A DNA stretch of 56,576 nucleotides, the filler included, from Sluysia triapertura (lineage: Eukaryota): the NCBI GenBank assembly GCA_046118255.1. It is 4 parts of 4 records of this genome, joined end to end, with 100 filler letters (N's around TTAATTAATTAA, not from the genome) between each part and the next. Parts side by side here need not be neighbours in the genome. Positions count along the whole stretch, not along the records: positions 1 to 15,063 come from JBJNIA010240105.1; 3 more parts are not named here. One strand, given 5' to 3'. Shown here piece by piece: positions 81 through 43,939 of this stretch (positions are counted from its first letter, which is position 1; the number at the start of each line of letters is the position of its first letter). The translations under genes were made by a program, and so were the position numbers. The notes under the pieces were generated by a model that saw only the letters and a program-made list of their open reading frames with translations, was not told the origin of the DNA and ran no database searches.

Positions 81-1470
81 AATATAATTTATAATTTTTT
101 TCAATTTTTCATATATTATAAAAACTTAAAATATAAAAGTGCAAATAATTAATACTTAATTAAAAGATTATTTTCACATTAAAAATGAAGCTGTCATCCT
201 GATTAAATCATCTCGATATATTTTGTTTTTGGTTAAACTCAGCAATAAATATATCTTTGATTTCACAACATACATTAGGCCCACCTTATTATTTTCATGT
301 TAATGATTCATAAAAATCATTAAATAAAAAGGTGGGTTTTTTCCTCTACATCATATGCAAAAGTAGAAATAATTTTCTTGAACATGATTTCTAAAAACAA
401 GCACTACTCGAAAATAATAGATAATATTAAGATCATTAATTGTACACGAGATAATTTTAAAGTTTTTAAAACGTAAAAAAGAAAATAATTAAAAAAACTA
501 CTTCCTTACTTTAAATTAAATAAAAATGTATCATAAAATTGAGGTAAATTGAAATATTCAAAAGATTAAAATCTTCGAAAAGTATTTTAATTTGCACCCA
601 AAAGCATTTATTGAAACCTTAAAGAATAAGATAAACATTAGAAATTAAAATGTTAATATGAAAAAAATAGCAATGGCATCCTCAAACATAATTAGCGTTC
701 GAAAACATTTACGAATTAAACTTAAATGCTGATAGAATTTGAAAAATTATCTATAAAACAGATTGTAATTTAAATAAAACTCCATAGTCAAAATGTAATT
801 AACCTCTGTAAAAGAAATTGGCCTTAAATGATTTATTATAGAATAAAATTGACCATATAATGAAATTAAATATGAAATCAGATAGAGAAAAGTATCAACA
901 TACAATGAATATTAATTATTTATGGTCATACTATAGTACGTATGGGGGATAATGATGATTTTAGTATTTTGTTGTTGTATGTTAAAGAGTGTTGTATGGT
1001 ATATGATGGGTTTGAGGGCGTTAAATAAAGAAAAGAGATAAAAGCTGGTTTTGAACTTTGAAAACTTATATTCGTTTTTGTTATTAAAATGTGACCACAT
1101 CTTGTAAATTAAGATATGACATTTATGAATTACTTTGTGACACTTTAAAGACATAATTATCTTAAAAGCATGTATGTTTTTGACACCAATGGTACTCTTA
1201 TATAAACGTTTATAACGTTTAGAATATTCTAACATAGGAATATTAGTAATGCTGTAGTTAATTCTGGTACGTATGATTACATATTGTTTTGAGACTCATA
1301 ATTTTAGTACTACAACCAGTGTCGGTCTTATTAACCCTAATTACAATCATGATTAGTATGTGGATGTTTTTGATTATAATAAAATATAAAATCGGAGATT
1401 TATTATAATTATCTTTTGATTCGACCTGATTAAAAACTAACACGTAAGGATACCAAGATATATAATTTAT

Positions 1471-2643
1471 TTAAATTTTTAATGAAAAATCATTGTAACA
1501 ATTTATAAAGTATTTTATAAAATTTTCTCCATGCTTCTCCTCATTCCATGTTTCGGTTCCGCTGGTAGTTGAGTTACTGAAACTATAAATAAGAACATAC
1601 AAATACAAGTTATAATAATTAGAACAAGTAAATTTTAATGTTAAAATATTACCTTCATTGTTGATGAGACAAAAACGTCGATCCAGAAATACGTCAAATG
1701 ACAGGAACGAATAACACATTCGTGAAACGATAAAATTTTCCAATACGTTATTGTGCCTATACTCATGAGGCAGCGTCGAAAAAACTTTATTACTACATAA
1801 TAAGGTTACACCAAGTGAACAACATCCACACTTAACGAACTGCTCCTTGATCATCCTGCTAGTAGCTTCACGAATCTGCACTCCAATCAGCCCATTAGTA
1901 TCTTCATGACATGGTTCTTCTATCAGTTTATGAATGACTTCATGAAATCGTACCTTGAACAGTTCATTAGTATCCCTCTGACGTGATGCTTTGATTAGTC
2001 CACTAATATATTTATAACATGATTCTTCATTCAGTTGACAAACATCTCTATGAAATTGTACTTTAAACATATCGGTAGTATCCACACAAACAACATTAAA
2101 TGCATGGTCTATACATCTGTAGAATCTATCTTTAATTACTTTATTAATATCCAAATAAATCATATTAAACCATTGATCTTTATTTCTCTCTAAATAGCTA
2201 ATAGAATTATCTTTACAAACCTCAAATCTAGCATGAATGAATAGTAATGAGTGCTGTTGTATTGATTTTCGTATTTTTGGATCAGTCGACTGATTAGAAC
2301 AAGTAGGAAATAAATCGTCAAAACTACTTGTAACATTGATTATATTGGTAACATCGTTAGCTTCAACATTGACTTTATGTTGACTTAATATTTTGTGATC
2401 GAATGAATAACCTGTTCCAAATTGTAAATCTGATGATGAACCTAATGCAATTAAAATCAAAGAATCATTTGCAACAGAAACGTAAGAAACATATATATCA
2501 TTTCCTTTAACATTAGAAATTATCGGTTGATTAATATACTGTCTAATAACACCAGTTTTAGATGTACTAGAATTGTTTACATTATAAGAATCCGAATTAC
2601 TATAAATCAAATAATTTGTATCTGATAGAGGTTGAGAGTCCAT
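1471..2643 (-). CDS. Intronless 390-aa orphan protein with internal 12/36-aa repeats
   Basis: 1173-nt uninterrupted ATG-to-TAA ORF in very AT-rich DNA, where such lengths are unlikely by chance. It has a 108-nt internal duplication and upstream CCAAT boxes. No family recognised. Confidence 0.75.
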   Translation of the reverse strand: MDSQPLSDTNYLIYSNSDSYNVNNSSTSKTGVIRQYINQPIISNVKGNDIYVSYVSVANDSLILIALGSSSDLQFGTGYSFDHKILSQHKVNVEANDVTNIINVTSSFDDLFPTCSNQSTDPKIRKSIQQHSLLFIHARFEVCKDNSISYLERNKDQWFNMIYLDINKVIKDRFYRCIDHAFNVVCVDTTDMFKVQFHRDVCQLNEESCYKYISGLIKASRQRDTNELFKVRFHEVIHKLIEEPCHEDTNGLIGVQIREATSRMIKEQFVKCGCCSLGVTLLCSNKVFSTLPHEYRHNNVLENFIVSRMCYSFLSFDVFLDRRFCLINNEGNILTLKFTCSNYYNLYLYVLIYSFSNSTTSGTETWNEEKHGENFIKYFINCYNDFSLKI

Positions 2644-2859
2644 TGAAAGCTAATGATAAACCAAATTTGACGTTGAGTTTCCGTAATATCGTATGGATAA
2701 TTATTGAAATCAAATTCTGTTTTTAATTCGTTTATTGAAACTACCGAATAAGTATACCGACTTTACAAAAGAAATTTTATTGATTATTTTGTTACAATAT
2801 AAATTATGCTTCATATTGTGAGTGAGTTTGTTGTATATAAAAATGATATTAATTAAAGT

Positions 2860-3074
2860 AGCCAATAAAATGATTTCTTTTTGTGATATTGAGCTTCTCC
2901 ATTTCCAACTCTAACTCAACTGCTGTCTACCCAATCAGAGTGTTTTGATTGTAAATAAAGCTGAGTTCACTCTGATTGGGTGATAGTGGATTAAGTTTTT
3001 TAATACTGGTCAGCCGTCATCAGCACTGACATATTAATGACGTTTTAAAATGATTTTATATGTGCTGATGGCGG
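2860..3074 (-). promoter_or_regulatory. Putative promoter of the 390-aa ORF, with CCAAT boxes in an inverted repeat
   Basis: AGCCAAT at ~2861; perfect 14-bp inverted repeat ACCCAATCAGAGTG (2929-2942) / CACTCTGATTGGGT (2968-2981); second 12/13 inverted repeat at 3014-3026 / 3062-3074. Confidence 0.45.
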
Positions 3075-4699
3075 TAGAGACTGATTTGTCGGAAATTAAA
3101 TGGCAATTTGTGGTGCAAATAATGAATTTAATAATAATCATTAATGATAACAATAATAATAATAACAATACTGATGATAATAATAATAATAAAATAACAC
3201 AATAATAAAAATGTAAAAACATAAATTTCTTTAATTCTGAATAACACACGATCTTGTCTTTACTTTTCTTAATATTCTGACATAAAAATGATAGAATAAA
3301 ATAAAGGATAAATAAAGTGGATAAAAGGCTGTGAAGTAGCAACGGTTATGAGTATATACAATGTCATTTGTGGTTGCTGCTTCGCAGTGTAAAATAACAA
3401 GATCTTTAAAGTTATTTAAAATTTATTTTTGTAAATGTGAAATGATTATGGTTAAGTGAAATTAAAGATAGTTTATTGAACTTATAAAAGGTTTATACTT
3501 TGAATGAGGTTGTTGTATTAATTGTGTTGATTAAAATGCTGTTGAAATACTTGGAGTTATTTTGACTTTAAATGATGATTGCGAAATAATTCTGTATATG
3601 CTATAATGTTGTTACAAATGATTGAGGGTGATGAGTAAGGTTATGTGAAGTAGTTTTAAACTGTTGTTGTTGATTATAGTTTTAGGTGAGATGATCTTTG
3701 TTTCTGAAATGGTTATTGGTATTATTTGAATGTTATTATGTTTATGATTTATTAGGTTTATGTTGTGATTATGGCTTGTTTGATGAAATATTTAGTGAGT
3801 AGATGTTATGAGTTGTTTGGAATGAATGTAGTGGTTTATTGAGTTGGGAATGTTTGAGATATAGATTGTTTTGTTGGTGAAGTGTTATGATTGTGTATTA
3901 TTGTTTTATGAGATAAATTGTGTAGTGTTTATGGTTAAAAGTACGCTGTGAGTAAGGTTATTTATTTTAATCTTGAGTTATAAAAGTTGACCACTACAAC
4001 GTTGATGCAGATAATGTAAAAAATATTTACTTTAATTTATTTTCTTTAATATAAAGTTAACTTTATATACGTTGTAATGTTTATCTATGATAAAAAATAT
4101 ATTTCAAATTTATGCTCACAAAGATACCAAATCGACGTGTAACATACTGTTAATGTATGGCATATTTTAATACAAAAATTATTGTGAAAAGAAGTTATTA
4201 AATTATTAAATAAATATTAATAAAATTATTAAATAATATTAAATTTTATTCTGATTGTTTATCACAAATACTATATCTTTGGGTAATGGGTGGGAAATTT
4301 TAAATTCGAAATTATTGTTGAAATTGATTGTTAAAATTAGTCGACACATAAGCGACTCAAAAGATAAGAAATTATGCAAAATAACTTCCAATTTCTAATT
4401 TCCTCAGCAATTATTCACTCATAAGTTGGTAATTATATTACTAATGTGATATTTCGCTTTTTGTAGGTAAAGTGCATTATGATATTGTTTTTGTATTACT
4501 GTTGTTAGTTGACTCAAGTTTTTGTATTTGTTTTGTTAACACGGATACTAACATTTTGGGTGTTGCATCACTCCTAGATTTGAGTATTGTATTTTCTTAA
4601 CTGGTCGTGCAAAGAAATTTATTTATATTAAAGAATAACACATCATTTGTATTTATTTTGTGATTATTAAAAATAAATCAAGATTTCAGATTAATTTAA

Positions 4700-5085
4700 T
4701 TTTGTTAGTGGAAACATCAGTAGAATAAAGAACGTCCAGTCGATCGGGATATTGTGGAGAATGCGATTACAAAAACCATCGGTGAGGAAACAAACAGTGA
4801 TGATAATGAGAGCAACTAAACATTCGTGGAGCGTTTAGACGATGAAAGAATGGTAGAGGATGCGGAGTGTACTTTCTTAATATAAACAAAGCCGAGATGG
4901 TGAATTCCTTGTGAAAAAGAACATGAAAATAACTTTTCTTCATTAAAAAATTATAACTTTAATGATATGTCTTGATTTTCGATTGTTATAAATTCTTTTT
5001 CCACATTTTTGTATTACATTTTTGAAGACCTCAATTTTTCGGACAAAACCTCAAAATGGTGCAAAATGTTTCGAGGTCCCACTAT
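4700..5085 (+). mobile_element. Decayed pogo/Tigger-like transposon 3' end
   Basis: Stop-interrupted frame with an acidic stretch followed by EDAECTF...W*IPC, resembling the C-terminal Cys finger of pogo-like transposases; terminus-like GGTCCCACTA followed by TA. Confidence 0.35.
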
Positions 5086-7500
5086 ATTATTAATGCAGAA
5101 CAATTATTAAATATTGTACCTACTTTTAAGAGTACTCCTAATAAATTAAACTACTATCACATAAAGTTTGTCATTGTCATTGTTATATCATCTAATTTTA
5201 TCATCGTTTAACAGAACAATTTCGATCTGACAACGCATCACTATAAGTTTGATCAAAAGTATACTTTGCATTACATAAAAACTGTTTTAACAGAAAATCG
5301 TGCAAAATCTTAAAATAAATCATCTAGCTCATCTGACAAAAACTCACTTTTAAAATTATCTTTAAGATCATCAATAAAACCATCTTGGAAACCATTTAGA
5401 CTATCGAAATTATCAAAATCGTGCAAACCGTCGAAAAGTAATTCAATTAAATTATTCGATATTTCAACGATTCAAACTGCTTCACAAAATTAATAGTGTA
5501 AATTCGAAATTATCTACTAATTCTAAATCTATTAGACATGATTTATTTAGTCATTATACCTGATTTCAGAATATATTTTGCAGAAAATCGTCAATAGATT
5601 TATTCTTTTCAAGGGTCACAAAGACTTAAAGACAAATTTGTCTTGTCGAAGATGGTACACATCTCATAGGCGCAAGTACGTGTTTTATCTTTTTATTTCG
5701 AATAACACTGCTCAAATTGTCCAAAGTTATTTTTAAGGAAATTTATAACAATTATTAACTATTGAAAATGTAAAGATAAGGTACATCTTTACACATTTTA
5801 AATCTTACAAATTTCAAAATTATATTAATAAACTAAATAATATAATTATTAATAATAATTCTTAATTCTCAAGTTTTAAAATAATTTTTAAAAGTGCTAG
5901 AAGAATTCTAAAGAGTAATGTTAGGTCGTCGCTCATTGACTTGTTAAATCATTGACTTTTGCAATTTTATAAATATTTAATGATCGATAAATATTATTAC
6001 ATTTTGATTGTTTTATATTTTATTGCATAAACATCATTACTTGAATTTGTATTATTTATATTATTTAAAAATATTATTATTGTATTAATAAATATTATTT
6101 ATATTATAAAATAAATGTGATATTAAAGAAATTGTAATAAAAATTTTAACTAAGGTAATTAATAAAGAATTAATAAACAAGAAAAATTGTTTTAGCCAAT
6201 AAAAGTTAGAAAATTTGTTTTACTAAATCAATTGATAAAAAAATTCAAAATGGACGAGACAATGGTGGAAATATACTTTAAATAAATGTACTTTAAATTT
6301 TTGGAAATTTGACACAAGAGAGAAGATTTTTCACAATTACAGACAATTGATTTTCGCCAGTTTATCAATAATCCATGAAGAAGTAATATTTATTTTCATA
6401 AGTTATAACTACCCTAATTTTAACATAATAAAGTTTTTAAAAATCTACTCAAAATCAATTCATTTATCCTAGACCATAACTGGCTAGGTTAACCTTCTAG
6501 CTAAACTTTGATATTCTAATACACCTGAGCATTAAGCTTAAGGCGTTAAAATAATTATTATTATATATTTTATTTTTATTTGTACACGTTTTACTAGTAA
6601 ATTATTTTTGGTCTCTGAATAATAAATATTGAGGTAGTTACGGACATTATTATTAATTTAGTTAATTAAAATATTTGTTGATTTGTCAGACCTAAAAATG
6701 CTGACCCAATATATAAAATCTCACATCATATTGTCAGACCGTTAAAAGGCTGTGTGGTGGCCAACTTCGACAGACAAAATTTTAATTCATCATAGTACAC
6801 TAAAAATCATACTTTACCAACGCTTAAATCATTAAATGCATCAAAAATCATTAAATTTTAAATTTAAAGATAATGATAAACTAAATTGAATTTCTTTGAA
6901 CACCTTTAATTTTGTTAATATTCTCCTACTACACTCCTTCATAATTTTTCTGTACCTTTTTAACAATAATCAGAAGGAAAACTAAAGAGAGAATATCAGA
7001 GAATAAAGAGGATTTTATGAAAGAAAGAACTGTTTTTGTATAATTATTTTTTATTACTATTTATTTTATTTTATCTTATTATTATTATTATTATTATTAA
7101 TTTTTATAATAATAATAATTATTATTACTATTATCATTATTATTATCGTTAACATTTTCATCATTATAATTATTTTATTATTATTAATTAAAACAACTGT
7201 CAATTGTTTTCAATTAAATCATACTTTATTATCTGTCATCTTTTGAAAGCATTGTTTGTCCAAACCATTTTAATTTGACAAAGCAACAAATAGCTGCGTT
7301 TATTGGCTAACAAACCAAACACAATATAACTAGATTTATTACAATCAATACGTTCATAATTAAATTTGTAATCTCAAATTGATCGTAATTTAACAATCAC
7401 AAGTAGTGCAACCAAAAAATTAGTTCACAATTTATTTTACGCTCAATTCAATTTATAATTTTACAGTAACTTACTCACAATTCAATTTAATCTATTGATA

Positions 7501-8037
7501 TGCAATCATGATCTAATGTTTTCAAAAATTGAACTATAAATGTTTCTAGCAATAAACACTATGTCATCGCATTCAGACAAACTCTTAGCATGACTTTATT
7601 CATTCAAGGAGGAAGATTTAGACTTGCTTTACGAAATCTTAGATGTTTATTTATTAAACGTAGTTTTTCTTCAAATTGATTTCGCTACTAATGCTAATTT
7701 AAAATTATCGGATTCAGAACAACACGAAATTAGTTTTCAACAAAATTCTTATAGATATAAAAATATAAAGTCTAATTATGTACCACTCGACCAACTAAAA
7801 TATTGTCTCGAGAATAAATCTAAATTTATATCTAGGCAAATTTATCTTTAACACGGTGTAGTGGTAAAAAGTTTATTTCGGTAATGAATATGACAATTTG
7901 TATTTTAAATTCTTTGATTGAGAGAATTTATTTAATTTTTAAGAAAATTGTAGGAAATATTTGAAAATTATTGCTAAATTTATATTTCTTTACGAATTTT
8001 ACTAAAACATTTAATTTATCTCTTAAAATTTATTGAT
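7501..8037 (+). pseudogene. Decayed intronless ORF, possible paralog of the 390-aa ORF
   Basis: Long frame with in-frame stops (includes ORF 7624-7851) downstream of ATTGG at ~7302. The C-terminal NEYDNLY...FFTNFTKTFNLSLKIY* resembles SNYYNLY...YFINCYNDFSLKI* of the 390-aa ORF. Confidence 0.4.
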
Positions 8038-11000
8038 AAACTAAAATAATATCTAAAACTATTTATTTTTACTAAATCTGCCACAAAATTCTACAAAGAT
8101 ATAAAAAATAACAATTACAAAGATATAAAAATTCAAGTAAAAATATATACTTATTACCATTTCAATGTTGTAGGTATTGGAAAGTAGAATCTGCAAACAA
8201 GTTTCGACTCCCACAAAGCAAGCTAGATAAACGGGAACATAATGGAATTCTAAAACTGTGTGGCAGAAAATGCCGTTTTTGCCGTGTTTATAGCATTTGC
8301 CAGTTGGAGTAGACGTAGGGGCACAGAGCAATTTGTAGATTTTCGTTACCATTATAGAATGACTTAAAATGGCCGATTTTAGAATTATCAGTTGACAATG
8401 TTGTCTCTTATGATTTCGCTTTATTAGTCATGGCTATTGAATTGATATCTACTATATTTTTGATAAGTAAAAAATAATTTAATAAAATTTCATGTAATTT
8501 GATCATTAACCGATACAATTAATGTACTAATATTTTTATTTTTATTTCCCATAATATATTTCAATGAATAAACATAATTTTCATTTGATTGTTTGGATTG
8601 AGGTGCATAAAATCGTTCAGTTAAAATGTTTGTACTAATGTTTTGTACTTGCACTATTTTAGCATAAATTTTATTATTTCTACAATTCAAAAATTTATGA
8701 TTTTTGGTGATACTTCTAGCACTTCATGAAATATACTAACTAAAATTAATTTTTCATTTGTGGTTGACTCTGGTTTACTAAAATTCATATTTGAGACAAT
8801 CGTAATAATCTTTAAAACATCGCAATAGTTAACATCCATCTTTAAATCTCTTATCTTTTACATACATACATGTCGAATTTTGTCATTATCTTTTTCATTA
8901 AAATTGAACACTAACTTTCCATCAACATATTTGAATAAAATGTAAAAAGAAAAACTAAATGTTCTATTCATGATAATATAGTAATGAAATAGTTATCTAA
9001 TATAGAACATCAACATATTGTATTAATTTTAAGTTTTAATTTTGACAATATTTACCTTTTCAATTCTAACAAAAGATATTTATTTCTTTATTTGTGTAAC
9101 CGTAATTCGTAAAATTAATACGACTAATAATTAAATGTCATTAATGAAAAAAATGTGATTTATGTTTACACTCAATATTTTTTTGACACCGTTACAAAAT
9201 TAATTAGAATTATATTTGACAATGATTGGGCGTCCAATCAATTGAAACGAAACACAAATCAGAAGTACAGTTGATTTCACAAATCAGCTGAAATAAATGA
9301 CCCACAATCGACAGTTTAATAGGATAAAGAGATCCAATTTAATTCACATGTGACTAGACTAATTAATTTACTCTAGTAACACATAATAATGATGATTAAA
9401 ATTGTGTACTTAATAATGTTTATTAGTAAAATAATGTTGATAATGAATAATATTAATAATGATAAAGTCATAATAAAGATAATAATAAGGATAATAATAG
9501 TAGAATGTGGTTGAAATAATAATAATATAAATAATAATATAATAATCATAATAATAACAATAATAATAATAATAAATTTGTATAAAATAAAATATTAATA
9601 ATAATAATATTAAAAAGTTAAAATACATAAATGTCTTAATTTTATTTAATTATTCTAACACCATCTTTCTTCTTATAAATCAAACTCAAATATTTCTTGA
9701 CATAAAATTTTCTTGAAATTAAATTGATCAAATTCTTTTCTTTAAATGACTTTGTTTTTATAAAATAAAATTCTTTTAACTTATTTCCTTTAAATAAGTT
9801 TTGTTCGGTGATTAGAGACTGAATGTTAAAAGATTGTAAGCTTTAAATGTTTTGGATTTATTTTAAGATGTGTATTCGATGGTTTAAGGTATAATTGTGA
9901 TTTAAATATTATTAGATAATGCGTAAAATGTTTTAGCTGAGTTTTAAAATGTAGATTGACAGTTTTGAATATAATTATGATTTGATAGTTAACAGATTAT
10001 GAATTTAAAATGTTTTGAGATATCAAAAATGATTTTAATGCATCTGAGAGAAGTAAAATATAAAAAAGTTTTAATAGTATAATAGGTAAAGTGTTATATA
10101 ATGTGGTGACATTGAATTTGCAATGTTTTGAATTAATTTTAAAGTATAAGTTTGATGACTTTCGATGTCGAATATGACTTTGATGTAATGAATTTTTATG
10201 ATTAGAATGTTTAAAAGTATTAAGAATTGTGAAATGTTCTGAAGAGTGATTTTCTAAGTTTCAAATTTTTATAATTGTTTAATTGATTCGGTACGTTTCC
10301 ATTCTCAATTGCACAAATAACATGTCGTTCATCCTCACTTCGACAAAATCAGAAAACATTGAAAAATCTTTATACTTACATAAACTTGGACTTATGATAA
10401 ATACATTTGGATGACTTCTGAGACTAGAAAAATTTATTGCCTTACTTTTATTGTTTAAAGGATAATTATATAAAAGCGTCTTTTCAATTTTGTAAAATTT
10501 AATTTTAATTTCCATTATTATAAAAATAGTATATATTTTCAGTGTAAAATGCTTTAATATAATTGAAACGAATAACAAGTTCGATCATTTAACAAAACAA
10601 TATATAATCGTACTAAAATATATTATTGTTCATAAGGAATCCTGACATCATTGATAATGCTTTCATAATACAACGTAGCATAATTCAACTTCTTATCACT
10701 CATATACACGATTGGTTCTAATACATCATGTATAATTTTGCACATAATAAATGACGTCACTTTGAATCATTGCAGACAACTTCTAAGGATTTAATCCGTT
10801 AAATGCATTTATTTGGCATAGATATAATTTAGAATGTACAATCTTAGAATGTATAAGAAATGTATAATCTTATGAAAGTGGCCTATTTCTGTGTCCAGGG
10901 TTAATATTCAGCTTAGTCTTTCTATTACAACTGAATTAAATAGAGTAACTAAATAATATGATTAGTTTTTTATAGTTAAGTTTTATACAAAAATATTTTT

Positions 11001-11800: not shown

Positions 11801-12904
11801 CTTTATTTAATGTTTACGTTATAAAGAAATATTGACAATCTTCAGTAATTTTTAATATTGAATCGTTGATGCTATTCTCCCAAATAAGTTCACTTTTATA
11901 AAATTAAGATTCAATTATTGAAATTTTTTATTTTCTTCTGTGATTATACATTGATGGATTAACTTTTATTAATATTATATAATAAAATTATTTTGCATGG
12001 TTTTTTTATATTATATAGTTAATGTGTTATATAGTTAATACATTATATAATTAATATATTAATATATATAATTAATAATATAATATAATTAATATTTTAT
12101 ATAGTTTATATATTTACATAGTTTATCTATTTCATATAGTTAATTTCATTCTACATAATAGGACCAATTTAATGTATATATTTTTTAATTTTCTGCCTGG
12201 TATTTGTTTGATTGTATTAGAGTTTTAGTAGTAAATTTATATTTATCTACTTTCTAATTAATTGTTAGTTTGTGTAGGTTTGAATTTATTAAAATGTACC
12301 TTTTCAATTCCATTTTAGTAAAATTATAGGTTTTTCGTTCTTATGACGCTACTTTTTGAGTTACTAATTAGGTGTGGCATGTTCATATATAAATTTCTTT
12401 TTCATTTCTTTTCATTTATGACATTTTTAAAGTATCTATTTAGAGTGTTTGAGTTATTTTTAGTTATTTGAAGGTTACTGAGTTGCTTTTAGATTTATTT
12501 AATTTTATAATTAAAATTAATTTAATATTCTCGTAAATATTATTCAACATTTTGTAATTAATTTAACGATACTATTGAATTATATAATTTAAAATATAAT
12601 ATAAAATAGTAGTTTTCATCATATATTATGTGCGCTATCTAAGTGTGAATAAACTATTTGGAACCTAAAACTTCAATGTACAGTGTCATTATCGTAAGAA
12701 TACATTTGGTGTTTTTAATCTTTCCTTACTTTACTTACTTTAAATTTTTTACGTCAAACTTCGTAACTTTAATTATCGTGAGTACTTTTAACTCTTCTCT
12801 TATTTGACAGAGAATTAACTTAAACTAACTTAAAACTAACTTAAAACTTAAAAGTGAATAATACAATATTACAATTAAAAATTTTATTTTAATTTAAATA
12901 TTAT

Positions 12905-13400
12905 CCCTGTATGACGCGATATTAACGTACCACGTTATAGAACATCGTGTTATATGTAACTATCGCGCTATAAGAATTGTAACTGAATACAAAGCGAACA
13001 TAAACATACAAACATAGAACAATAAAAATAGTTTAATCGTTTAAGTGGGCTTCAAATAAAATATCAAATAAAATATCCAAATAAAATATCATTATTTATA
13101 TTATATTTTTTGCAATAAAATATGACCAACTGATATTCAATTTCTATGATATGATAGCTTTGCTATATTTATCTCCCTCTATTTCATAAGTGCTGCTGTG
13201 GTTTCCTGTGAATCTTATTGCGTTCATCTACAATTCTGACTAATAACATAAATAGGCATTTCTGTAACTATGCGATAAAACATATTAAATAACTTTGTAG
13301 TGACGGTGTCTTAATAATCGCCTCGTTCATGTAGAACACTTATAATTAAACTTAATTGGCTCGAATATAAAACGACTTTATGCCTAAACAATAGAAGATC
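12905..13400 (-). mobile_element. pogo/Tigger-like remnant
   Basis: 12905-13030 is homologous to the TA-CAGT terminus at 36789-36915; minus-strand VFYMNEA resembles the pogo VFNMDET motif. Confidence 0.45.
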
Positions 13401-13922
13401 TAATAAATACATTACAACAAAATAGAATTTTATACCTCATTAAATTGGAGCTTAAGTTGATTTTACAATTTAGGAGTAATATAAACCTTATATAAAATAA
13501 AAATTTTTATATAAAAAATTTCCGAATAAATTTATTTATTTATTTAACTTATATTTTTTATATTACTTGTCATTAATTAAAATATTGTGATGACTACATG
13601 AATTTTAATAATTTGTATGCACATGACTAAACTAATATTAACGATAATATCATTGATTGACTAAATTATATTATTGATTTTATATTTGTATATGTTATAA
13701 ATTTGTAAATTGATTATTGATTAAATTATATGTGTTATAAATAATTGGATTTATTTTCAAATTTTTATTAATATTTCTAAAAGAATTAATCAAATACGGT
13801 TAAAGGATATAATTTTAAATCAAAGTAAGATTAATAAACTACATCTTTAAATTATAAAATTATATTTCATTATTATAAATTACTGAAAATTATTTATTTT
13901 AAAAAAATAAATAAATATTAGT

Positions 13923-13958
13923 TTTGTTTTAGTCTGACCAAGGTCAGACTAAAACAAA
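13923..13958. repeat. Perfect 17-bp hairpin with a 2-nt loop, possibly a Helitron/Helentron-type terminal palindrome
   Basis: TTTGTTTTAGTCTGACC-AA-GGTCAGACTAAAACAAA. Confidence 0.7.
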
Positions 13959-14449
13959 CATAAATAAACAAAATTTTTGTTACAACCACCATAAATTGAT
14001 TTAAACAAAATTGGTATCATAATCGTGCTCTTTTAAATTTCTTCGACGAAAAGTTTGATTAGCCGAAGATTCAGAACATTATCTTTTATTTCGATTGTAC
14101 AGTTAGTTTATTTTTTATAAGATTAGATATCAACAAGATATCATCCGTAAAATCTTACTCAAAATCTTTGTAAATTATATTTTTGAATCTTGTAGCAGAT
14201 TCAGAGTAAAATCACATTAAAATTTTACGAGATAAAAAGAATTGTTTTTTAATTCTTGCGTAACTTTTTATATATATAACTATATTTATAATCTTGTACA
14301 TTTTAATAATATACCTTATGAATCTAAACTTTTTCTTTATTATTAAACCAAATCCAACTTTTATAGTTGCAAAATAAATCAAAATCCACACAATAATTAA
14401 AGAATTTTTGGTTAGAATATAATTCTAACGTCGTAATTTAATCATTTTG

Positions 14450-15063
14450 ATCCTATTTCACAGGATCCGCGTAAAATTACATTTAAACCCTTAAATAACT
14501 TGTAATGGTTAAATTACGATATAATAATTGAAACAGTTAGCCTAGAGCTAAGAAATCTAACAAATTTTTGACTTAACCTCCATTACTTTTACTTTACGCA
14601 AAATCTAATGGCTGGCCCTCGCTGGTAAGTTCAGTACGTTGGTGAACTCACAGCTTTAAATTAACCTTTATTCTAACTTTCTCACAATTTGATACTTCAT
14701 TTCATCTTGGTTACACAGGTATACGATATGGTTTCTTTCTGATAACCTTATCTTCCAATATTGGAATTTCGTGTTTTATTATTACTGAATCACATGTGTC
14801 ATATTTATTTCTAGCTATTGCCCACGGATATCGATAAATAACTTTATATAGTAATTCCTTTTGTTCTTTTGTTAAGTTCTTATTTTAATTTTTATTTCTT
14901 TATCTATATCTCTTTGTAGTTTAATTTTTTATGTTTTGGTTTATTATTATTCGATATTAGATTTATTTGAGTCTCTAATTTATAACTTACTATTTCTCCT
15001 AATTTAGTTCCTGCATATAACCATTTATTTTCTTCTGTGTAATTTATTATTCTTATTGGAATA
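14450..15063 (-). mobile_element. Ty3/gypsy pol fragment (protease-RT linker and RT start), decayed
   Basis: IPIRIINYTEENKWLYAGTKLG; NLTKEQKELLYKVIYRYPWAIARNKYD...IKHEIPILEDKVIRKKPYRIP; SSP...IRFCV; NLLDFL. Frameshifts and stops present; runs into the gap. Confidence 0.8.
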
Positions 15064-15163
15064 NNNNNNNNNNNNNNNNNNNNNNNNNNNNNNNNNNNNN
15101 NNNNNNNTTAATTAATTAANNNNNNNNNNNNNNNNNNNNNNNNNNNNNNNNNNNNNNNNNNNN
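15064..15163. other. Artificial contig linker
   Basis: N44-TTAATTAATTAA-N44, with stops in all six frames. Confidence 0.95.
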
Positions 15164-15764
15164 ACAATTCATCTATATTATAGGAATAAATGTTAAACAA
15201 TATTAATTTATGATTAATATGTTGTGATTAAATGTTAATAAATAATTTTTTATTTTATTAAATATACTTTTAGTTTATAAATTCAGTTTGAGTTTATTTT
15301 GTAGAGTTATAAATTAACTACTCTTAAAAAAGCATAAAACTAACGATTAATATAAATTAGTTTTTCCAAATATCAATATTTTTTTCAAATATTAATAATT
15401 TTTCTAAAGAAATAATTTTCTTTTATCTAGCTATAAATAAACTTTTAATATCACTGAATCAATAATTTTTAAACGTTGAAATTATATATTTGTGTAAGTG
15501 TAGCGATTCGCTATTTATAGTGTTTCTAAATACTATTTTTAGTAGTTTTATAAATAAAAAATAAGTTTAATAATTAAAACAATAATATTTTTTTAAATTA
15601 TTTATTATATTTTTAAATATATTTTTTTAATTTAATAATTTTTAATACATAAATACATTAATAATTTTAATATTTAAATTTAATACATCAATAATTTTAA
15701 TATTTAAAATATCAAAATAAAATATCAAATACACATAATACATTAATACATACATTACATAACA

Positions 15765-16470
15765 ATGATTTTAAATTTTGATTAGGTGAAATTAAGAAGA
15801 TAAGCGGATCGTTGACCACAAATCCTATTATCATTAGATAATTAAAATTAGATTGAATGTGAACATAGACGGCATTTTAATCAGTAAAATTAGTCGGCTT
15901 ATTGCCGACTAAAAGGGAATAGATGGCTTTAATTTCCGTCTTGTTCAATTCTTGATTTTAATTTCTTACAGCATCATAAAACTCCTATACAAGAATTACA
16001 ATTTTGCATAACATTAGAAATAGAACCACAGAGATAGAAGTTAGATTTGAATTATCAGATCTTTATAGCTGATACATTTATGGTTAACGGCGATATCAGG
16101 GCTTATTCTTTAGTAATTGATTAACATAAATATTTAGGACTAGAGGACCTAGGGTTAGTGATTTATTTTATATTGAATATATTTTGCATTAATACGGGTG
16201 CAAAGATTTAAGTTGTGTCACCCCTGTTTTTTATTTTTTTTTAAAAAGTAATTTACGTTGTTATAGAGAGTAATTTGCAATAGTGTTATAAGGAATAATT
16301 GTATTTTGTTATAAAGATTACTTTGTATTGTCGTCATAAAGAATAATTTATATCTTTTGATTGTAATTTTGTGATTATTCAAAGAATATATCGAGATTCT
16401 GAATTTGTTTAGTTATTGGGTTTTGATTAATAATTTATAAAGTAAAAAAGTATACAAGACACAACAATTT
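15765..16470 (-). repeat. Dispersed repeat, copy 1 (decayed coding-like, probably TE)
   Basis: Co-linear similarity to 46750-47325 (for example GATAAG.GGAT.GTT.ACCACAA, TTTTGCATTAATACGG, ATATATCGAGATT.TGAATTT); stop-interrupted frame on the minus strand. Confidence 0.7.
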
Positions 16471-16591
16471 ATATAAGAAAAGTTTTGTGTTTTTATTTTG
16501 GTAAATATTAAATGATTTATAAATTTTCTTTGAATATTCGATGAACTTTGTTTTTAAAAAATTAATTATTTTCATTTTAAAGCAATTTGAA

Positions 16592-16790
16592 ATGAACGCT
16601 GATACTACAGGAAAATTATTATTTTGATTTGTACGTGCTTTTCGAATTCATGAATAAATACTTAGAGAGAGAATAGTTTTAGATGTTGGAAATAAGACTG
16701 AATCCTTACCCGTGTTTGCAATTAAAGTCAGAGCTAAAAAAGTGATTGATTATGCTCGAACTTCTTCCCAGCAATTGAAGCCTCTAAGCT
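16592..16790 (+). pseudogene. PRMT1: PRMT1-like arginine methyltransferase pseudogene fragment
   Basis: YYFDLYV / FRIHE*ILRE-RIVLDVGNKTESLPVFAIKVRAKKVI-DYAR versus PRMT1 YYFDSYAHFGIHEEMLKD...[26 protein letters not shown]...DYA; stop, frameshifts and internal deletions. Confidence 0.75.
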
Positions 16791-17269
16791 CAATCTGAAC
16801 ACATTTTATAAATCAAAAAAATCTGTTACTATTTATTCAATGACGAATTCTGTACAAAAAAATCTATCGGAGCTTTTTATTTTGTTTTTCATTATTTTGA
16901 AATAATATAGAGAGCATTATTTATCATATATTAATTTTTGTTGCGTCAGTCCTAGATTTTCTTTTTGCGCGGGTTGTTGTGTACTTAACATTGTAATAAA
17001 AGTTATTGTTAATTTTCTTTTAATTGTTATAATTTCTAGTTAACTCATTTATATTATTGTTAAAGCGGAGACTTACTGTAGTAATTTGTATTTATTTTCT
17101 TTTGGTAATTGTTATAAAATTTAGTTTTTGTATTATTTTAAATTAAAGAATATAACTTCTGTTGGAGTTGAATAGTTACCGTTACTAAACTAATAGAATT
17201 TAAGATAATTTAAATTTATTTTGGTAAGTATTGAAAATAATAGGATTCCATTAAGTTAAATTAAACTCA

Positions 17270-17470
17270 CATTGACTTATCGTAATCCGTCATTTCAAAG
17301 ACGCAACAAACAACAAATACTTTTGATTGAATTTTACTTCGTCTTTTTCTTAAATATTTCAGTAATTTGACATTCTCTGGTAGCTGGTTATGAATTTTTG
17401 AAACATACAATTTTAACCTATTATCTCTCTTAGTGTCTCTGTGAATTATGTATAAATTGACGCATTTTAA
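17270..17470 (-). mobile_element. L2 LINE ORF2 C-terminal remnant
   Basis: Reverse complement matches 21200-21305 (TATGTTTCAAAAAT..ACCAGAGAATGTCAAATTACTG..AAATATTTAAGAAAAAG); NQLPENVK resembles the L2/CR1 WN.LP motif. Confidence 0.65.
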
Positions 17471-17599
17471 ATACAAATTCAGTTTCGTTTCAAAATTTTT
17501 AGTTATTATAAGAGACCATCGATAATTCGTTGCTTAAAATATTTCTAATTACATTTTATATTATCCGTACTAATTTATGCACATTGCGGAGATATTTTA

Positions 17600-17820
17600 A
17601 TGAAAAATGACACCCCTGAAACAGATCTAACCGCACACAATCAAGCACGTACCACTCATAAACAGTACATTGACAAACCACATTTAGTTTCTTTAGGATA
17701 TTCTAGCACAGATTCTACCTATGACGAATAAATTACATTTACTGTAAGCGGCAGATATGATCTGTGTATAAATGACTGTCGAGGTTCAATAAGCAGAACT
17801 ATCATAATCAATTCTCTAAG
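17600..17820 (+). pseudogene. Exon-like fragment with DKPHLVSLG (PHLDB-like, N-terminal to FHA), containing an in-frame stop
   Basis: ATG at 17600, DKPHLVSLG at 17672, one in-frame TAA, strong AG|GTAAGT donor at 17820/17821. Confidence 0.3.
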
Positions 17821-19054
17821 GTAAGTACATAAACGTTTGCCTCGTTTTATAAAATTATGAGTATCGGTGAGCATGAATGGCAAATAGCAATAAAACATAG
17901 TAAGGAATCAATTAAAAAAGAATGAAGATTAAAACATTTAGAACCTTTTATAAGCGTCAAAGATTACATTAACGTTTATATAGAAGTTTTAGAACCTCAT
18001 ACCTTTGAGGCTTTGATAAACTTTTATTTTTTAATTTTTGTTTCCGTACAACTCTATTTTAAGATGGGTTTAAAAGCGAACATCCATTAGTTAGATATTT
18101 ACATTTAGATTGCAATTTAGAAGGTGCACATTGAGTTCCAATTTATATGCCTTGCTGTCGGATTACCCGAAATCATAACAGGTACTATGAAACATAAAGA
18201 ACGAATCTTTCCTTCATTAGTCAAAAAGCCTTTGTTTTTCAGTCTGTAACTAAATCTTTATAATTTAGGTTACAATAAATTTCTAGTGTCATCAAAAATT
18301 ATTGTGTCGACATACAAATCATGGTTCATGATGTGCATTCCTGCAATTATTCTGGTCTTTAGGAACAGGAAATTCAGAAATGGAAATAAGCGGAAGGTTC
18401 CACATTGAGAAAATCTGTTTGAAATATCATCGTTTGATAAGAATGGACTCATTATCCCCCTATATTCTTATACAAAATATGTAATCATAAGGTAAAAGCT
18501 GATAAAATAGAAAATATTTAACAATTTCAGTTTTATATTTTGTTTAAGTATTAAACTTTACATTTAGAAGTTAAGTTTCATTTGTTAATTCTTATTGGAT
18601 ATTGATTTATATAAATATTTACAATACTTTCTTATCAATATAAATTTTAATATAACGAATTTTCTATGTGCATTCATAAGTTTTTATTCTGTATTTTTAA
18701 CTTAGTGCGACAATACAGAAAAGTGACCTCAATGATTCCCATGGAAACTAAGGGACCATGGTCCAATAAATCAATGATAGAAAGCCAAATACAACACGGT
18801 ATGGTTTATCAAATTTAAATTTTCGAGAACTCACACTGATTTGTTGTTTGAACATAAAAGTGACCATTTTTAAGAGACGGTAATAATTTTTGAAAAGGAT
18901 TGCCCCACACGTGCCACACACACTCCATTGAGAAACAAAATCGATATTTTTAATTAGGAATTCACATTACAGTAATTGTAACAATGATAATATCAATAAT
19001 AAACGGTTTGCATGACAACGCCGAATCGAATTTCAAATCAAGCACACCGGACAG

Positions 19055-19343
19055 TCATACCACGAAGACCTTATGCAGATCTGATTGGCGACATCGCATA
19101 TTGGATCGAGGGCACACTACCATGTCATCCTTCTCCATCATTTCGGGAATCGCCTTCGTGCTGTATACGTAGCCATTCGGAAATGCGACTGGAGGATTCT
19201 GGTCATTCATTCGCAGTCCGGTCTTCCAGCAAATCAGAATCGAGTGATCGTATCTGGCAGCGGGGATGTGACGAGACACACTGTTTACTGGCTCGTTACA
19301 CACCACACATTGAGATTTCTTCGTTTCTGGTCGGTAGCAGTCC
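19055..19343 (-). CDS. MAEA: MAEA/GID9 (CTLH E3 ligase subunit), last exon, RING-like region
   Basis: DCY...CVVCNEPVNSVSRHIPAARYDHSILICWKTGLRMNDQNPPVAFPNGYVYS...VVCPRS...KVFVV* matches MAEA/Fyv10 CPVC...MNENNPPMMLPNGYVYG...VVCPRT...KVYIM. Acceptor TGCTTCAG; phase compatible with the previous exon. Confidence 0.9.
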
Positions 19344-19849
19344 CTGAAGCAATATACAATTAGCTGAAGAGGCACATTTCCACGAGTCGTTGAAGTTCAT
19401 TCAAAATCACTTACTTTCCAATTTAAGACCGGAATTTATATTTACCTGGAAAAATAGTCAGTCTCAAAATTTTGTATCCTCTTTAATCGAATTTCGGATA
19501 GTGTCGCATAGCAACATTTGCATTTATAAGGTTCAGTAATATTCAACAATGGATTATCTTTCAATTTCTGAAGGAATAAGTTGAATAATAGAAATATATC
19601 ATACATTTTGTGCAGAAATACATTTCAATCACTTAGAAAATTGAAAATGGATGTACAAAAAATAGCAGACAAAATAGATAAAATAATATCTGAAATATAC
19701 TAAGACATTGATCTACGAGACCCATGGCGTCACACAGTGTCACTGGAACTGAAAATGTCAAAGCGACAAATCAGCATCCATAAACAGAACCGCCACGTAA
19801 AATCAAGCAAATATAATAACCCGTAAAATGACAAAATAATGGAGCTTAC

Positions 19850-19983
19850 TCAGTCTTGTGTACCGATATTCCAGTATTGACAATAAGAGAGAGCAGTGTT
19901 GGATCTTTGTAGAACGAGTAGAACTGCAGAACGCAAGAGTGGAACTGGTCTATGATCCATTCTTCGTCCACTTTCCATTCTTT
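19850..19983 (-). CDS. MAEA: MAEA/GID9 penultimate exon (CRA region)
   Basis: KEWKVDEEWIIDQFHSCVLQFYSFYKDPTLLSLIVNTGISVHKT (cf. W..LIQQF...LTLQAGLSAIKT); AATTGCAG acceptor, GTAAGC donor; 134 nt. Confidence 0.85.
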
Positions 19984-20160
19984 CTGCAATTAATATTAAC
20001 ATTATCACTGTCACTAAATTGGAAGTATTCGATAAATTCGGTAGCCTGGTAAAAAAAGTATTCTATTTATCATCTAGATGATTCAGAAGTTTCAATTTTG
20101 ACAGAGAAATAATAGTTTTGAAGATTCGAGTTAGAAGAGTATTTCAAATGAATGACTAAC

Positions 20161-20352
20161 CGCTTGTTTCAGAACTTCGTCTCTGGATCTCAAAACCATC
20201 AGCGTCATTACCTGTGACAGCTTTCTCATGGTTGCTTCTGATATAGTCTTAGGGTCGGTGACTGATTGAGCATACTTGATAGCCTTCTCGTAAAGTCCGT
20301 TTTTGATGTATAGGTAGACCTTGAATATTTGAAGGTCAGATTGAAAAGTGTG
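20161..20352 (-). CDS. MAEA: MAEA/GID9 exon (CTLH end / CRA start); upstream exons not found
   Basis: HTFQSDLQIFKVYLYIKNGLYEKAIKYAQ...LSQVMTLMVL (cf. LEFSLRIQEFIELIR...AVRHAR...QVMGMLAF); AATTTCAG acceptor, GTTAGT donor; 192 nt, in frame. Confidence 0.82.
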
Positions 20353-20833
20353 CTGAAATTAATTAAATAATTTCACAAAATTAAAATCTTGTAATTTAAA
20401 ATATAATACCTCGAAAATTTTGATAAATTTGAAGAAAAAATTATTAGTTTTCGATACGGACGAACACTGCAAGCTGACCCTATTGTACAGACATAAAAAA
20501 AACAATGCTGAACAAGAACTATTAAACTCGAGAGTGCCCATTTCCTACTTAGCTTTCGAGGAGTTAAACTTTAGAAAAGACTCGAAAGTTGCACCCAAAT
20601 TTTTAACTTTGGTTCAGAATGAAGTTGTTCCGGAATCAGAAGGAACGAAATCTGACATTCTCGGTGAATTAAAAATAATTGACACTTAGGGTTTATATCT
20701 TTATTGAAGGAAAATAACTTTTTAAAAAAATTTCTAGCATTTCCCCACTATCAAAAATTTATGAGGAAATGTGTATTTCCACAGAGTAAATAAAAGAGGT
20801 TCTACAGTAATAGTATTGATAATACACTATAAA

Positions 20834-20897
<64 letters not shown>
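20834..20897. repeat. (TAT)n microsatellite
   Basis: Pure trinucleotide run. Confidence 0.95.
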
Positions 20898-20898
<1 letters not shown>

Positions 20899-20959
20899 AA
20901 AATTATTTTTAAAACGTTCTACGAATTGGAATAATTTTTAGACAACTATTTTAAAAGAA

Positions 20960-21385
20960 TAGCAGTCGCCAGAGATCTCAAGTAACATTTATCTTAAGGA
21001 AGTACATTGGTTACTAGTAAAATCAAGAATAGAATTCAAAATCATGACAATAATTACGGAAGTGCTGAATATCTCTTAGAAATAATACAAAAATGGGAAA
21101 CCAAGATGATATTTCATTGAGACATAATAATAAGCTATGTTTCAAAAATATACAACCAGTAATAATAATAATAATAATAATCTATATAATAAAAATAATA
21201 ATCTATACAGAATTCACAGTGATAATAAGCTATGTTTCAAAAATATACAACCAGAGAATGTCAAATTACTGGAAGATTATGAAATATTTAAGAAAAAGGC
21301 AAAGTTATATTATGGTGAATGTTTTATTTTAAGCGTTTTTGAGTACTTACTTTGTAGTAGATATATTATTAAAATAAATAATTAA
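20960..21385 (+). mobile_element. L2 LINE 3' fragment
   Basis: QVTFYLKEVHWLLVKSRIEFKIM (cf. HITPVL..LHWLPV..RIEFK), QPENVK...FKKKAK, and a TTAAGCGTTTTTGAGTAC tail. Confidence 0.8.
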
Positions 21386-21639
21386 AAAAAGAAAAAATAA
21401 AAGTCGAATGACACAATAACAAAAACAATAAACAAAAAGTAAGAAACCACTCATAACAATCTCTAAACAGAAATATTCATAGACAACAGCACTAACAAAT
21501 GTTTTATGCAGAAATATTCCAATCCGACTCGTGGCTATTCGATTATACATAACTAATACTATTGTGTGTGTTGGTTATGAGGATTGAATTGAAACTAGTT
21601 TATTGTCATTGAATGTAAAATTATTATTCTAACATTATA

Positions 21640-22190
21640 TTTAATAATAATTCTTGAATAAATTTTTATATTATTCATACTAATACAAGAAAATACACAC
21701 GAAAGGGTAGTGTATTACAAATTGGATATACACAAGTATCGTGAAAATCAAAAAGAGTGAATCTCAAGCTGGAAGTAATTTTATTTCTGATCAACTACAC
21801 ACAAAAGTCGAAAACATGATTTTTAAGAAAACTGTTATCAACTAGGAAAAGTTGACAACAATGTGACTTAATAATATGATTCAAATGATTGATAAGAGAC
21901 AATACGCTGGCACATTCTTGGAAAGATAGACACCACTTTCTCAGATAAATTGAAATATCAGTTCTTCATTCAACTAAAGAGAAAAATTGTTTTTTTACAC
22001 GACATGATACGTACATACTTGAAAATATATCGATTTAACATTTTGTCCAAATCACAATTTGTCACGTTACAACTTTTGAATAATAATGACAACTAAAACT
22101 CGGACAGGAGTCATTTGCTTGCACATTCTCTAGAACTTTCTAAAACTTTACAAAGGCCACAAGCTGTATTATCTATTAATACTTTGCTTT
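21640..22190 (-). pseudogene. Decayed intronless ORF downstream of an inverted CCAAT pair
   Basis: Long frame with many stops (..DLDKMLNRYIFKYVRIM..IFPRMCQRIVSYQSF..), weakly similar to IVSRMCYSFLSFDVF of the 390-aa ORF; ATTGGCTA/TAGCCAAT at 22249-22271. Confidence 0.3.
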
Positions 22191-23359: not shown

Positions 23360-23433
23360 ATTTAATTGCGACTCGCGAAAAATTTCAAATTTTGAAAAAT
23401 GGCTCGGTCTATCAAAGAGTTTGGCCAACCCTG
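23360..23433 (-). mobile_element. hAT (Charlie/Buster-type) terminal sequence
   Basis: Minus strand begins CAGGGTTGGCCAAACTCTTTG...GAGCC, typical of hAT terminal inverted repeats; the other end was not found. Confidence 0.45.
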
Positions 23434-26760: not shown

Positions 26761-26995
26761 TGATGTTAATAAATTCCCAAGGTTAATAAATTCTTTGAAT
26801 TTCTAAACAAATAAAATTTACAGCATTTCTAAATCTTGCATCAGAGACGAGTAAAGACTCTAACTTTCAGAACAAATTTAAACATTTAATTACGATTTAA
26901 TAAAGAATAATGTAAGAGTAATTTTACTGAGTTAGATTGACAATAAACAGAAGAAACAGTAACAAAATAAGTTTAAATAAAGAACCAACTTTCTA

Positions 26996-27057
<62 letters not shown>

Positions 27058-27071
27058 GATATTGAACAATA

Positions 27072-43071: not shown

Positions 43072-43939
43072 TTCATTGAAATTTAATTTATGGTTATTGG
43101 ATATTATGTTTTAAAAGGTTTAAGGTTGTGAGTGTTGGCCACTACAACTAAAACCAATCATCAAATAAAATCATGAAATTTAAATAAGTAAATTAATAAA
43201 TTAAAATTTTAATAAAATTAAAGAATAATAATAATTAATATATTAAATTAATTAGTATATTAAATAATTTATAAAATTTAAATTAAAAATAATAAAGAAA
43301 AAATTTTTTAAATATTTGTTTTAATAAATTATAAATTATTTTTAGGAAGATATACTAAAAAATATTAATTATTTTTAATATTGGAAGCCGTATCAAAAAG
43401 AAAATTACTATAAATAGGTGAGTTTTATTTAAAAAACACACAAAATATTAAGAAAACAGAAAATCAAAATTGGATTCAGGATTTTTAGAATTTAAAAGAA
43501 AGAAGAGTTCCTAATTTAGAATTTGAAATTTTCAGAAGATTAGAATTTAAAATTTAAAGAAGAATTCCATGTAAAAAAGTAAGTAATTTTTATATAAGTT
43601 TATACGTTTTACTGTAATAGGAAAAGAAAAATTTACTTAAAATCACTTTAACTTTCATGCAACACCTTAATACGGGTTGCGAAATCTCCTAAATTATTAC
43701 TATATTTGTTAAAGCAACACCTTAATTCGGGTTGCGTAAATATAAAATCTGTAATTAAATGACACTTCGTAAAAGGTTGTATTATAAATTTATCAAATAG
43801 TTATTGTTGTATACACAGTAAGGTATAAGCAAAAGTTTCTCAGTTAAGAATAAGTTATAAAAATCCTAATAATAGTGGTATAAATCGTATTAATGTATTA
43901 AATTTATGTTTAATATTATTAACCATAATTTTAATCTTT

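Follow-up and report, generated by a model that had tools for sequence, protein, structure and literature searches.

A 3,058-bp module of Sluysia triapertura interpreted as a long terminal repeat from a CsRn1-like gypsy retrotransposon with a probable translated leader

The window analysed here, the whole stretch of 56,576 nucleotides from Sluysia triapertura (assembly GCA_046118255.1), is made up of four joined stretches with joints at 15064–15163, 27072–27171 and 42972–43071, and the subject of this report lies in the first of them (contig C240105). The assembly is fragmented and AT-rich, with 263,945 contigs in 619 Mb. An earlier inspection of the window (the original prediction) described a module occurring three times in the first 10 kb, in which a terminal motif, a strand-biased block, a TAA tract, paired CCAAT boxes and an intronless open reading frame (ORF) follow one another in the same order. 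We concentrate on module 1, which we interpret as a long terminal repeat (LTR) of a Ty3/gypsy retrotransposon; its parts are listed below, with reference to the polypurine tract (PPT) and the primer binding site (PBS) of linked copies.

941..3998, minus strand: module 1, a solo LTR of 3,058 bp, TGTAGTGG…CCCCCATA (TGT...ATA), delimited by end-motif mapping and copy comparison
3986..3998, minus strand: LTR 5' terminus TGTAGTGGTCAAC, with 10,056 exact matches genome-wide and an adjoining PPT in linked copies
3400..3985, minus strand: C/A-rich, G-poor block, putative U3 and the highest-copy part, from base composition and contig depth
3120..3210, minus strand: TTA/TAA microsatellite tract, seen in the sequence
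3012..3072, minus strand: first inverted repeat, CATCAGCAC...GTGCTGATG, from folding of that stretch, its arms altered in other copies
2928..2981, minus strand: inverted CCAAT pair with 13-bp arms (the pair itself at 2931–2979), a putative promoter of the LTR, or a hairpin of its RNA, close to the U3/R boundary
1471..2643, minus strand: LTR-internal ORF, the 390-codon open part, closed by a premature stop at 1471–1473, from ORF reading and relatives
949..1470, minus strand: broken continuation of the same ORF as far as the LTR end, from comparison with relatives
941..948, minus strand: LTR 3' terminus CCCCCATA, followed in full-length copies by AAA and the PBS TGGTGTCAGGAG, from the right-end motif and junctions

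The predicted layout of module 1 is borne out in its end at 3998, its G/T-rich block, its TAA tract and its inverted CCAAT pair, to which we add the right end at 941. The start motif TGTAGTGGYCAAC has 10,056 exact matches in the genome and its reversed control 8, and it is taken as the end of the element because the sequence downstream is common to the copies and that upstream is unrelated. At the other side, the best DNA matches to window positions 935–1240 mostly terminate at CCCCCATA, and TTTTTCCCCCATA has 143 matches against 11 for its control; module 1 accordingly spans 3,058 bp, from 3998 to 941 on the minus strand. Its flanks lack a 5-bp target site duplication (TSD), and the 3 bp that they have in common are at chance level. 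The G/T bias on the window strand amounts to C minus G of -47 to -74 per 300 bp at 3401–4100, and over the first 600 bp of LTRs represented by at least 2.4 kb the G-poor start averages 21% C and 5.7% G. Of the 55 LTRs represented by at least 1.8 kb, 37 have the inverted CCAAT pair. Outside its core, the arms of one copy pair with each other at 5.5 of 10 positions, as against 3.9 of 10 across copies, a value that none of 2,000 permutations equalled, with relatedness among the copies uncontrolled.

The left block is also the most abundant part. Summed contig depth in run X1 is about 15 for unique flank contigs, 174,000–342,000 over the first 400 bp and 400–7,000 over the ORF, so the left block is present in far more copies than the ORF of module 1. 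Depth in this one run gives a copy estimate of roughly 12,000–23,000, and reckoned at about 3 kb per copy the element may perhaps make up several percent of the genome. Run X1 contained no joint that would mark an empty site of module 1.

The identity of the unit follows from what adjoins its two ends in other copies. Among 86 right-end candidates, a set that includes a few false positives, two had the common flank AAA-TGGTGTCAGGAG, and the resulting junction of LTR end and PBS, CATAAAATGGTGTCAG, has 137 matches and its control none, which places a PBS directly 3' of the 5' LTR. At the opposite end a PPT precedes the 3' LTR: the PPT plus left-end pattern has 25 matches against 0 in the control (23 of the 25 being GGGGGCTGA), counts that are lower bounds because near-identical internal regions collapse in a fragmented assembly. 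Upstream of most PPT junctions lie integrase or pol remnants, and the longer contigs add Gag, a protease (PR), a reverse transcriptase (RT) and an RNase H (RH). One contig with the PBS junction (L309/L311) has, in order, the LTR end, the PBS, a leader, the end of RNase H, integrase (IN), a GPY motif, a purine tract and TGTAGTG, and L309 matches the Pfam families Integrase_H2C2 (E 4.5e-15) and rve (E 4.5e-10). The full domain order gag-PR-RT-RH-IN is found in L363 and L356, of which L356 is the one contig that spans the internal region, with a distance from PBS to PPT of about 6.0 kb. For PR-RT, 1,757 homologues reach E<=1e-20. The Gag protein carries the motif CX2HX9CX3C twice (as seen in L342/L357, L353 and L361) and is followed directly by PR-RT; no env was seen in the internal region attached to these LTRs. 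Finally, L362 has two LTRs, each of 107 bp and 93.5% identical to one another, together with a 5-bp TSD, TCTTT.

Module 1 is connected to both kinds of junction. Over its last ~660 bp it has 81.5% identity to L220, an LTR ending on the PBS, and over its first 107 bp it has 84% identity to L350, a PPT-preceded LTR start; L222, a member of the module 1 subfamily, has a leader with 35–50% identity to leaders that run into gag/pol. The suggestion of long LTR-like units with cargo ORFs was thus right, given the PBS, the PPT, gag/pol/IN and a two-LTR copy with a TSD, and the module is almost certainly the LTR of a CsRn1-like Ty3/gypsy retrotransposon, left in the genome mostly as solo LTRs.

Three LTRs are internally deleted and retain both ends: those of L362 (C29277), L306 (C58565) and L133 (C79809), of 107, 98 and 779 bp. 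L362 moved without the CCAAT block, because both its LTRs are short and a TSD is present.

The ORF within the LTR has several unusual properties. First, it was predicted to be intact, which is incorrect: it stops after codon 390 where its relatives read on, and is frameshifted beyond. A search of the genome with the 390-residue protein gave 143 matches among the 106 candidates scored out of 321, and the relatives are open for up to 530–650 codons, to the end of the element. An apparent GT-AG intron at about 1585–1652 was dropped, the relatives reading through it in frame. Secondly, the ORF has no stop codon of its own. Of the three frames, the one ending in ...ATA where the LTR ends is open the furthest in 44 of 53 right ends (median 87 codons against 11 and 8), solo copies terminate at chance stops in the flank, and at PBS junctions of the internal type the frame continues as I|KWCQE for up to 559 codons, in L312 to the end of the contig. 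Thirdly, the frame appears to be kept and the sequence is not. Among 20 copies picked for long open frames, whose pairs are not independent, differences are spread over the three codon positions at 34/33/34%, and the median dN/dS lies between 0.74 (kappa 1, 124 pairs) and 1.05 (kappa 3, 121 pairs). The leader after the PBS has a dN/dS of 0.44–0.65, and gag/pol of the same family 0.13–0.16, with 62–64% of changes at the third position. In a neutral simulation with 10% change, a 558-codon frame was still open in 0 of 300 runs.

We consider that the ORF is probably a leader kept open for translation, as a predicted leader mechanism, and that the best explanation of the whole, to which we assign a probability of about 0.72, is a CsRn1-like gypsy LTR with a dispensable N-terminal leader that is read through the PBS towards Gag. 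The left ~1.2 kb, with its G-poor block, TTA tract and inverted CCAAT pair, would be a U3 with the promoter. Transcription would start shortly after the CCAAT pair, placing the ORF within a greatly enlarged R-U5, and translation would begin in the 5' LTR, cross the PBS and head to Gag. The sole requirement on such a leader may be an open frame, either for reaching Gag or for avoiding RNA decay. There is a precedent on a small scale in yeast Ty1, where translation of GAG begins inside the 5' LTR and passes over the PBS; the LTR-encoded part of Ty1 comprises a few codons, whereas here it has about 550 and is exchangeable.

The exchangeability of the ORF is apparent from other LTRs, picked by the left motif or the left block, which contain different ORFs starting about 1.1–1.5 kb in. 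One type of cargo consists of ankyrin repeats (Ank_2, E 1e-31). The ORF family of module 1 includes a stretch of about 30 residues similar to the first helix of TAZ1 in CBP/p300 (profile E 1.6e-6), and the sole matches in a profile search of 1.84 billion representatives were two CBP/p300 TAZ proteins, again over about 30 residues. Plus-strand C/G percentages are 21/6 in U3, 25/9 in the leader and 24/13 in gag-pol as compared with 14/13 in the cargo, a composition consistent with later capture. Ankyrin repeats, the TAZ1-like piece and the unrelated orphan frames could have been captured by template switching and copied into both LTRs.

The right end of the LTR also appears to have grown. Of 63 PBS junctions, sorted by rough patterns, 19 run into internal sequence, 36 have short extensions, 4 have copies of a tRNA and 4 are unclassified. 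For 30 of these 36 extensions a new end motif could be placed, at +27 in 14, at +54 in 11, at +33 in 1 and at +26/+55/+56 in 4; as 26 of the 30 lengths are 27, 33 or 54 nt, old primer sites have evidently been absorbed into the LTR in frame-keeping steps. U5 would grow by duplication of a 27-nt piece spanning the LTR end and the PBS, with only in-frame versions surviving if translation of Gag or stability of the RNA needs the frame.

An alternative is that the element is the same LTR retrotransposon and that the ORF is a separate accessory gene, comparable to an ORF0 or small ORF, under rapid diversifying selection, so that the solo LTRs would be thousands of expressed mini-genes. Long frames are indeed confined to the sense strand, with a median of 139 codons against 67 antisense in 31 LTRs chosen without an ORF search, the start context LLMDSQP is conserved in many copies, and the ankyrin cargo is recognisable as such. 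There is a precedent in rice Retrosat2, which has LTRs of more than 3.2 kb and a fast-evolving ORF0 (PMC3485330). However, the Ka/Ks of the Retrosat2 ORF0 is given there as ~0.16 (Ka 0.257, Ks 1.65), unlike that of the LTR ORF here (PMC3485330). An alignment of 16 copies has no invariant column at all, AlphaFold run on this alignment returned a mean pLDDT of 30 and no confident fold, and the even spread of differences over codon positions and the lack of a stop inside the LTR also argue against a gene of its own. Pfam gave nothing above cut-off for the 390-residue protein, and no outside homologue was found in a search among proteins of near length. We consider an accessory gene unlikely, and the earlier suggestion of a fast-turnover gene family is weakened likewise by the absence of amino-acid constraint, a confident fold and an own stop codon.

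Several observations weigh against a retrotransposon LTR with a translated leader. First, all three copies that span the link between leader and Gag are frameshifted there, and no copy was seen in which a single frame runs without a break from the LTR ORF into the Gag core. Secondly, of the four contigs in which gag/pol has LTR sequence to its left and right, three have unlike LTRs, which either reach only 70–76% in the left block, as the long pairs of L356 and L363 do, or do not match; and no contig was seen with an identical pair of long (~3-kb) LTRs. Similarity of left blocks is moreover uncorrelated with that of right ends among 12 LTRs (Mantel r -0.04). Thirdly, a matching 5-bp TSD flanks only 1 of 14 solo LTRs with both ends, and the distribution of match lengths equals that of mismatched pairs. 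A scan of 46 left ends gave 4 with a 5-bp match where 1.0 is expected (at most 5 in 300 shuffles), of which the credible two are L056 and L362; offset or inverted TSDs are at null level. Yet the base profiles of the flanks, from 97 left ends and 89 right ends, do speak for 5 bp, the overlap at which their correlation is highest (r 0.82), with an 8-bp overlap also correlated (r 0.64) and other overlaps between -0.29 and 0.38 (4 bp: -0.29).

The TSD deficit and the unlike LTRs could reflect either very frequent non-allelic recombination or an assembly that joins copies through common stretches; the LTR of module 1 shares a 115-bp exact match with another copy. In the Cassandra element of pear, a terminal-repeat retrotransposon in miniature, 250 of 1,038 solo LTRs (~24%) lack a TSD (PMC4079214), and planarian synteny breaks are enriched in LTR/Gypsy elements (PMC11410931). 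A true deficit would allow LTR-driven ectopic recombination to be measured directly, and the LTRs would then be the places where ectopic rearrangement of this genome mainly occurs.

The missing TSDs would also be accounted for if the 3-kb units were self-mobile as LTR-only or strong-stop cDNAs, inserted without the concerted integrase reaction. Consistent with such an origin are the 13 of 14 solo LTRs without a TSD, the excess of 10,056 LTR starts over 25 PPT junctions, and the LTR ends followed by 18–49 nt of a tRNA copy and then by unrelated DNA, which are seen in 4 of the 63 PBS junctions and in most of 10 loci with the tRNA pattern. The PPT counts are lower bounds, however, the flank profiles of both sides bear the palindromic 5-bp signature that concerted integration predicts, and no tandem or circle junction between right and left ends was found. 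We regard this explanation as very improbable. Arrays of the kind formed by tyrosine recombinase (YR) circles, Ngaro or HeT-A were rejected as well, there being no right-to-left-end junction and only 4 matches with an unrelated spacer of 9–23 nt.

The tRNA traces themselves comprise LTR-like ends joined to 20–49 nt from the 3' end of a tRNA that has a long variable arm; the CCA complement is included in most (33 pattern matches, 10 inspected). Such fragments, of 18–49 nt, were observed in L371–L380, L269, L271, L303 and L319, and in L372 the sequence folds back into the LTR end in inverted copy. The fragments resemble captured products of plus-strand read-through, by-products of reverse transcription past the usual 18-nt stop. 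We presume the primer to be a leucine-type tRNA, for which ARAGORN and Rfam gave no confirmation: a search of 16 loci with ARAGORN gave no complete tRNA gene, and Rfam returned only weak matches to the tmRNA 3' end. A PBS in the reverse orientation was rejected, as it gave 15 unrelated matches and no common tRNA match.

It is scarcely credible that the unit is a Ginger-, HINE/Helentron- or Crypton-like DNA transposon of the non-autonomous kind, or that it belongs to a host gene family whose promoter is portable. The TGT start, the hairpins, the microsatellite and the lack of a TSD in most copies would suit such an origin, but the PBS, PPT, gag-pol-IN and paired-LTR copy with TSD attached to these exact ends largely refute it. 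Ginger, HINE and other DNA transposons bear inverted repeats at or near their termini and insert at a fixed target; here the ends are asymmetric, without terminal inverted repeats, no inverted start motif lies inside left-anchored copies, and there is no fixed target dinucleotide or flank base.

Taking the unit as a gypsy LTR with a leader, its closest parallels are in the CsRn1 clade (CsRn1, PwRn1 and AgCR), defined by a CHCC Gag, TGT...AAA/ATA ends, a tRNA-Trp PBS (TGGTGAG/CCCCGT/A) and a 4-bp TSD (PMC2582038). The element agrees with these in its TGT...ATA ends, CX2HX9CX3C Gag, PR-RT-RH-IN order, GPY/F motif and lack of a visible env, and differs in its PBS (TGGTGTCAGGAG, not tRNA-Trp), its 5-bp TSD (L362, L056) and its LTRs of mostly 2.5–3.1 kb, compared with 381 bp in PwRn1 (PMC2582038). 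Further differences are the ORF that begins inside the LTR and crosses the PBS, the two CHCC motifs and the more than 10,000 LTR starts. The element is CsRn1-like in its working and is not filed as a member of the clade, the likeness being drawn from Gag and the ends.

Rice Retrosat2, RIRE3 and RIRE8 and plant Ogre likewise belong to gypsy, have LTRs that reach or exceed ~3 kb, and place an additional ORF of poor conservation before gag-pol (PMC3485330, PMC6431247). Their ORF0 is, in these accounts, separate and under purifying selection, whereas the ORF here lies within the LTR, is stopless, varies between subfamilies and has a dN/dS near 1. LTR-mediated retroposition by template switching similarly places intronless host-derived pieces inside an LTR element and copies them onward, but the retrocopy described there replaces internal ORFs (PMC5131818), while the cargo here lies inside the LTR and is kept in every solo LTR behind a promoter-like block. 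A search of the literature found no description of this element; Repbase, outside that search, may hold relatives.

The proposed comparison with planarian giant elements finds no support. Burro/GYPSM1 exceeds 30 kb, with an internal region of ~25 kb, an N-terminal CCHC Gag and an in-frame env between gag and pol (PMC6431247). It shares with our element long LTRs and a polyprotein enlarged by captured domains including ankyrin repeats (PMC6431247); here, however, the internal region is ~6 kb (L356), Gag is of the CHCC type and the env-like ORF belongs to a separate family.

This second high-copy gypsy family was observed in L195, L199, L205, L207, L208 and L210 (contigs C18410, C247007, C208157, C185191, C12650 and C193616). 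It has a region resembling a Monjiviricetes-type fusion glycoprotein (Pfam E 5e-4, below cut-off) in frame before PR-RT-IN, a Burro-like layout, with 239 matches, 2,167 candidates and a pol dN/dS of 0.03–0.13. It was rejected as the parent element, since no PPT-linked copy of these ends was found in the contigs examined, and is instead an insertion target of these LTRs. The LTRs are inserted in their own copies and in RT and env regions of the env-bearing family in L053 (C227647), L016/L213 (C252187) and L057 (C196287). L060 and L323 represent a further gypsy subfamily with a CHCC Gag, different from that linked to these LTRs.

A broader proposal can be offered tentatively, at rather less than even odds: that the LTR of this gypsy lineage is a gene-capturing cassette, whose U5 grows in frame by absorbing primer sites, takes up pieces of host mRNA and is held open by translation itself, with recombination leaving more than 10,000 solo LTRs, each a promoter plus an ORF, as a nursery of de novo and chimeric genes. 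The LTR ORFs would in that case be a natural substrate for de novo gene birth. For annotation, many 'orphan intronless genes' in this genome would be explained as LTR cargo. An exchangeable ORF of ~550 codons in the LTR, selection on frame rather than sequence and in-frame absorption of the PBS together provide a testable model for giant LTRs and N-terminally extended Gag polyproteins.

The other modules and LTR pieces of the window are as follows.

6753..8040, plus strand: module 2, a decayed LTR of the TGTGGTGG subfamily, its first 120–150 bp 72–79% identical to the LTR starts L029/L301; right end not found and 3' limit approximate
8059..10253, minus strand: module 3, an LTR of the L033/L162/L296 subfamily without its first ~50 bp, 88% identical to L162 over 133 bp and 73% to L296 over 465 bp; 3' limit approximate
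43072..43146, minus strand: LTR start, first 75 bp, cut by the stretch end and in a different contig, 92% identical to the PPT-preceded LTR start L340

The threefold repetition is therefore confirmed in part: module 1 stands, and the intact ORF, the homology of ORFs across the modules and most of the later recurrences do not. The 390-residue protein matches only itself in a tblastn search of the window, and the ORF remnant of module 2 has 0 tblastx matches among the loci compared. In module 3 the ORF remnants had been placed at 8490–9000; the recognisable remnant is at 8125–8407, with 35% identity to the L033 ORF (tblastn E 8e-8). The recurrence proposed at 40750–43146 crosses the joint at 42972–43071, and only 43072–43146 is an LTR start. 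That at 21640–26000 has neither a terminal motif nor a CCAAT..ATTGG pair and contains only a C-rich patch at about 24500–24900. This C/A-rich patch (plus strand) is followed by a T-rich tract and, though without a terminal motif, may be an old LTR U3.

Elsewhere in the window there are exon-like pieces of host genes at 19055–19396 (minus strand) and 27407–27661, 35533–35947 and 49430–49783 (plus strand), which we take to resemble a MAEA/CTLH E3 subunit, a MARK/Par-1 kinase and mitochondrial ClpX; a homologue search with the MAEA-like exon gave no match. Dispersed repeats unrelated to the LTR are shared between the stretches, with 26412–27071 matching 40480–39849, 15307–16468 matching 46320–47327, and 12910–13035 matching 36802–36932.

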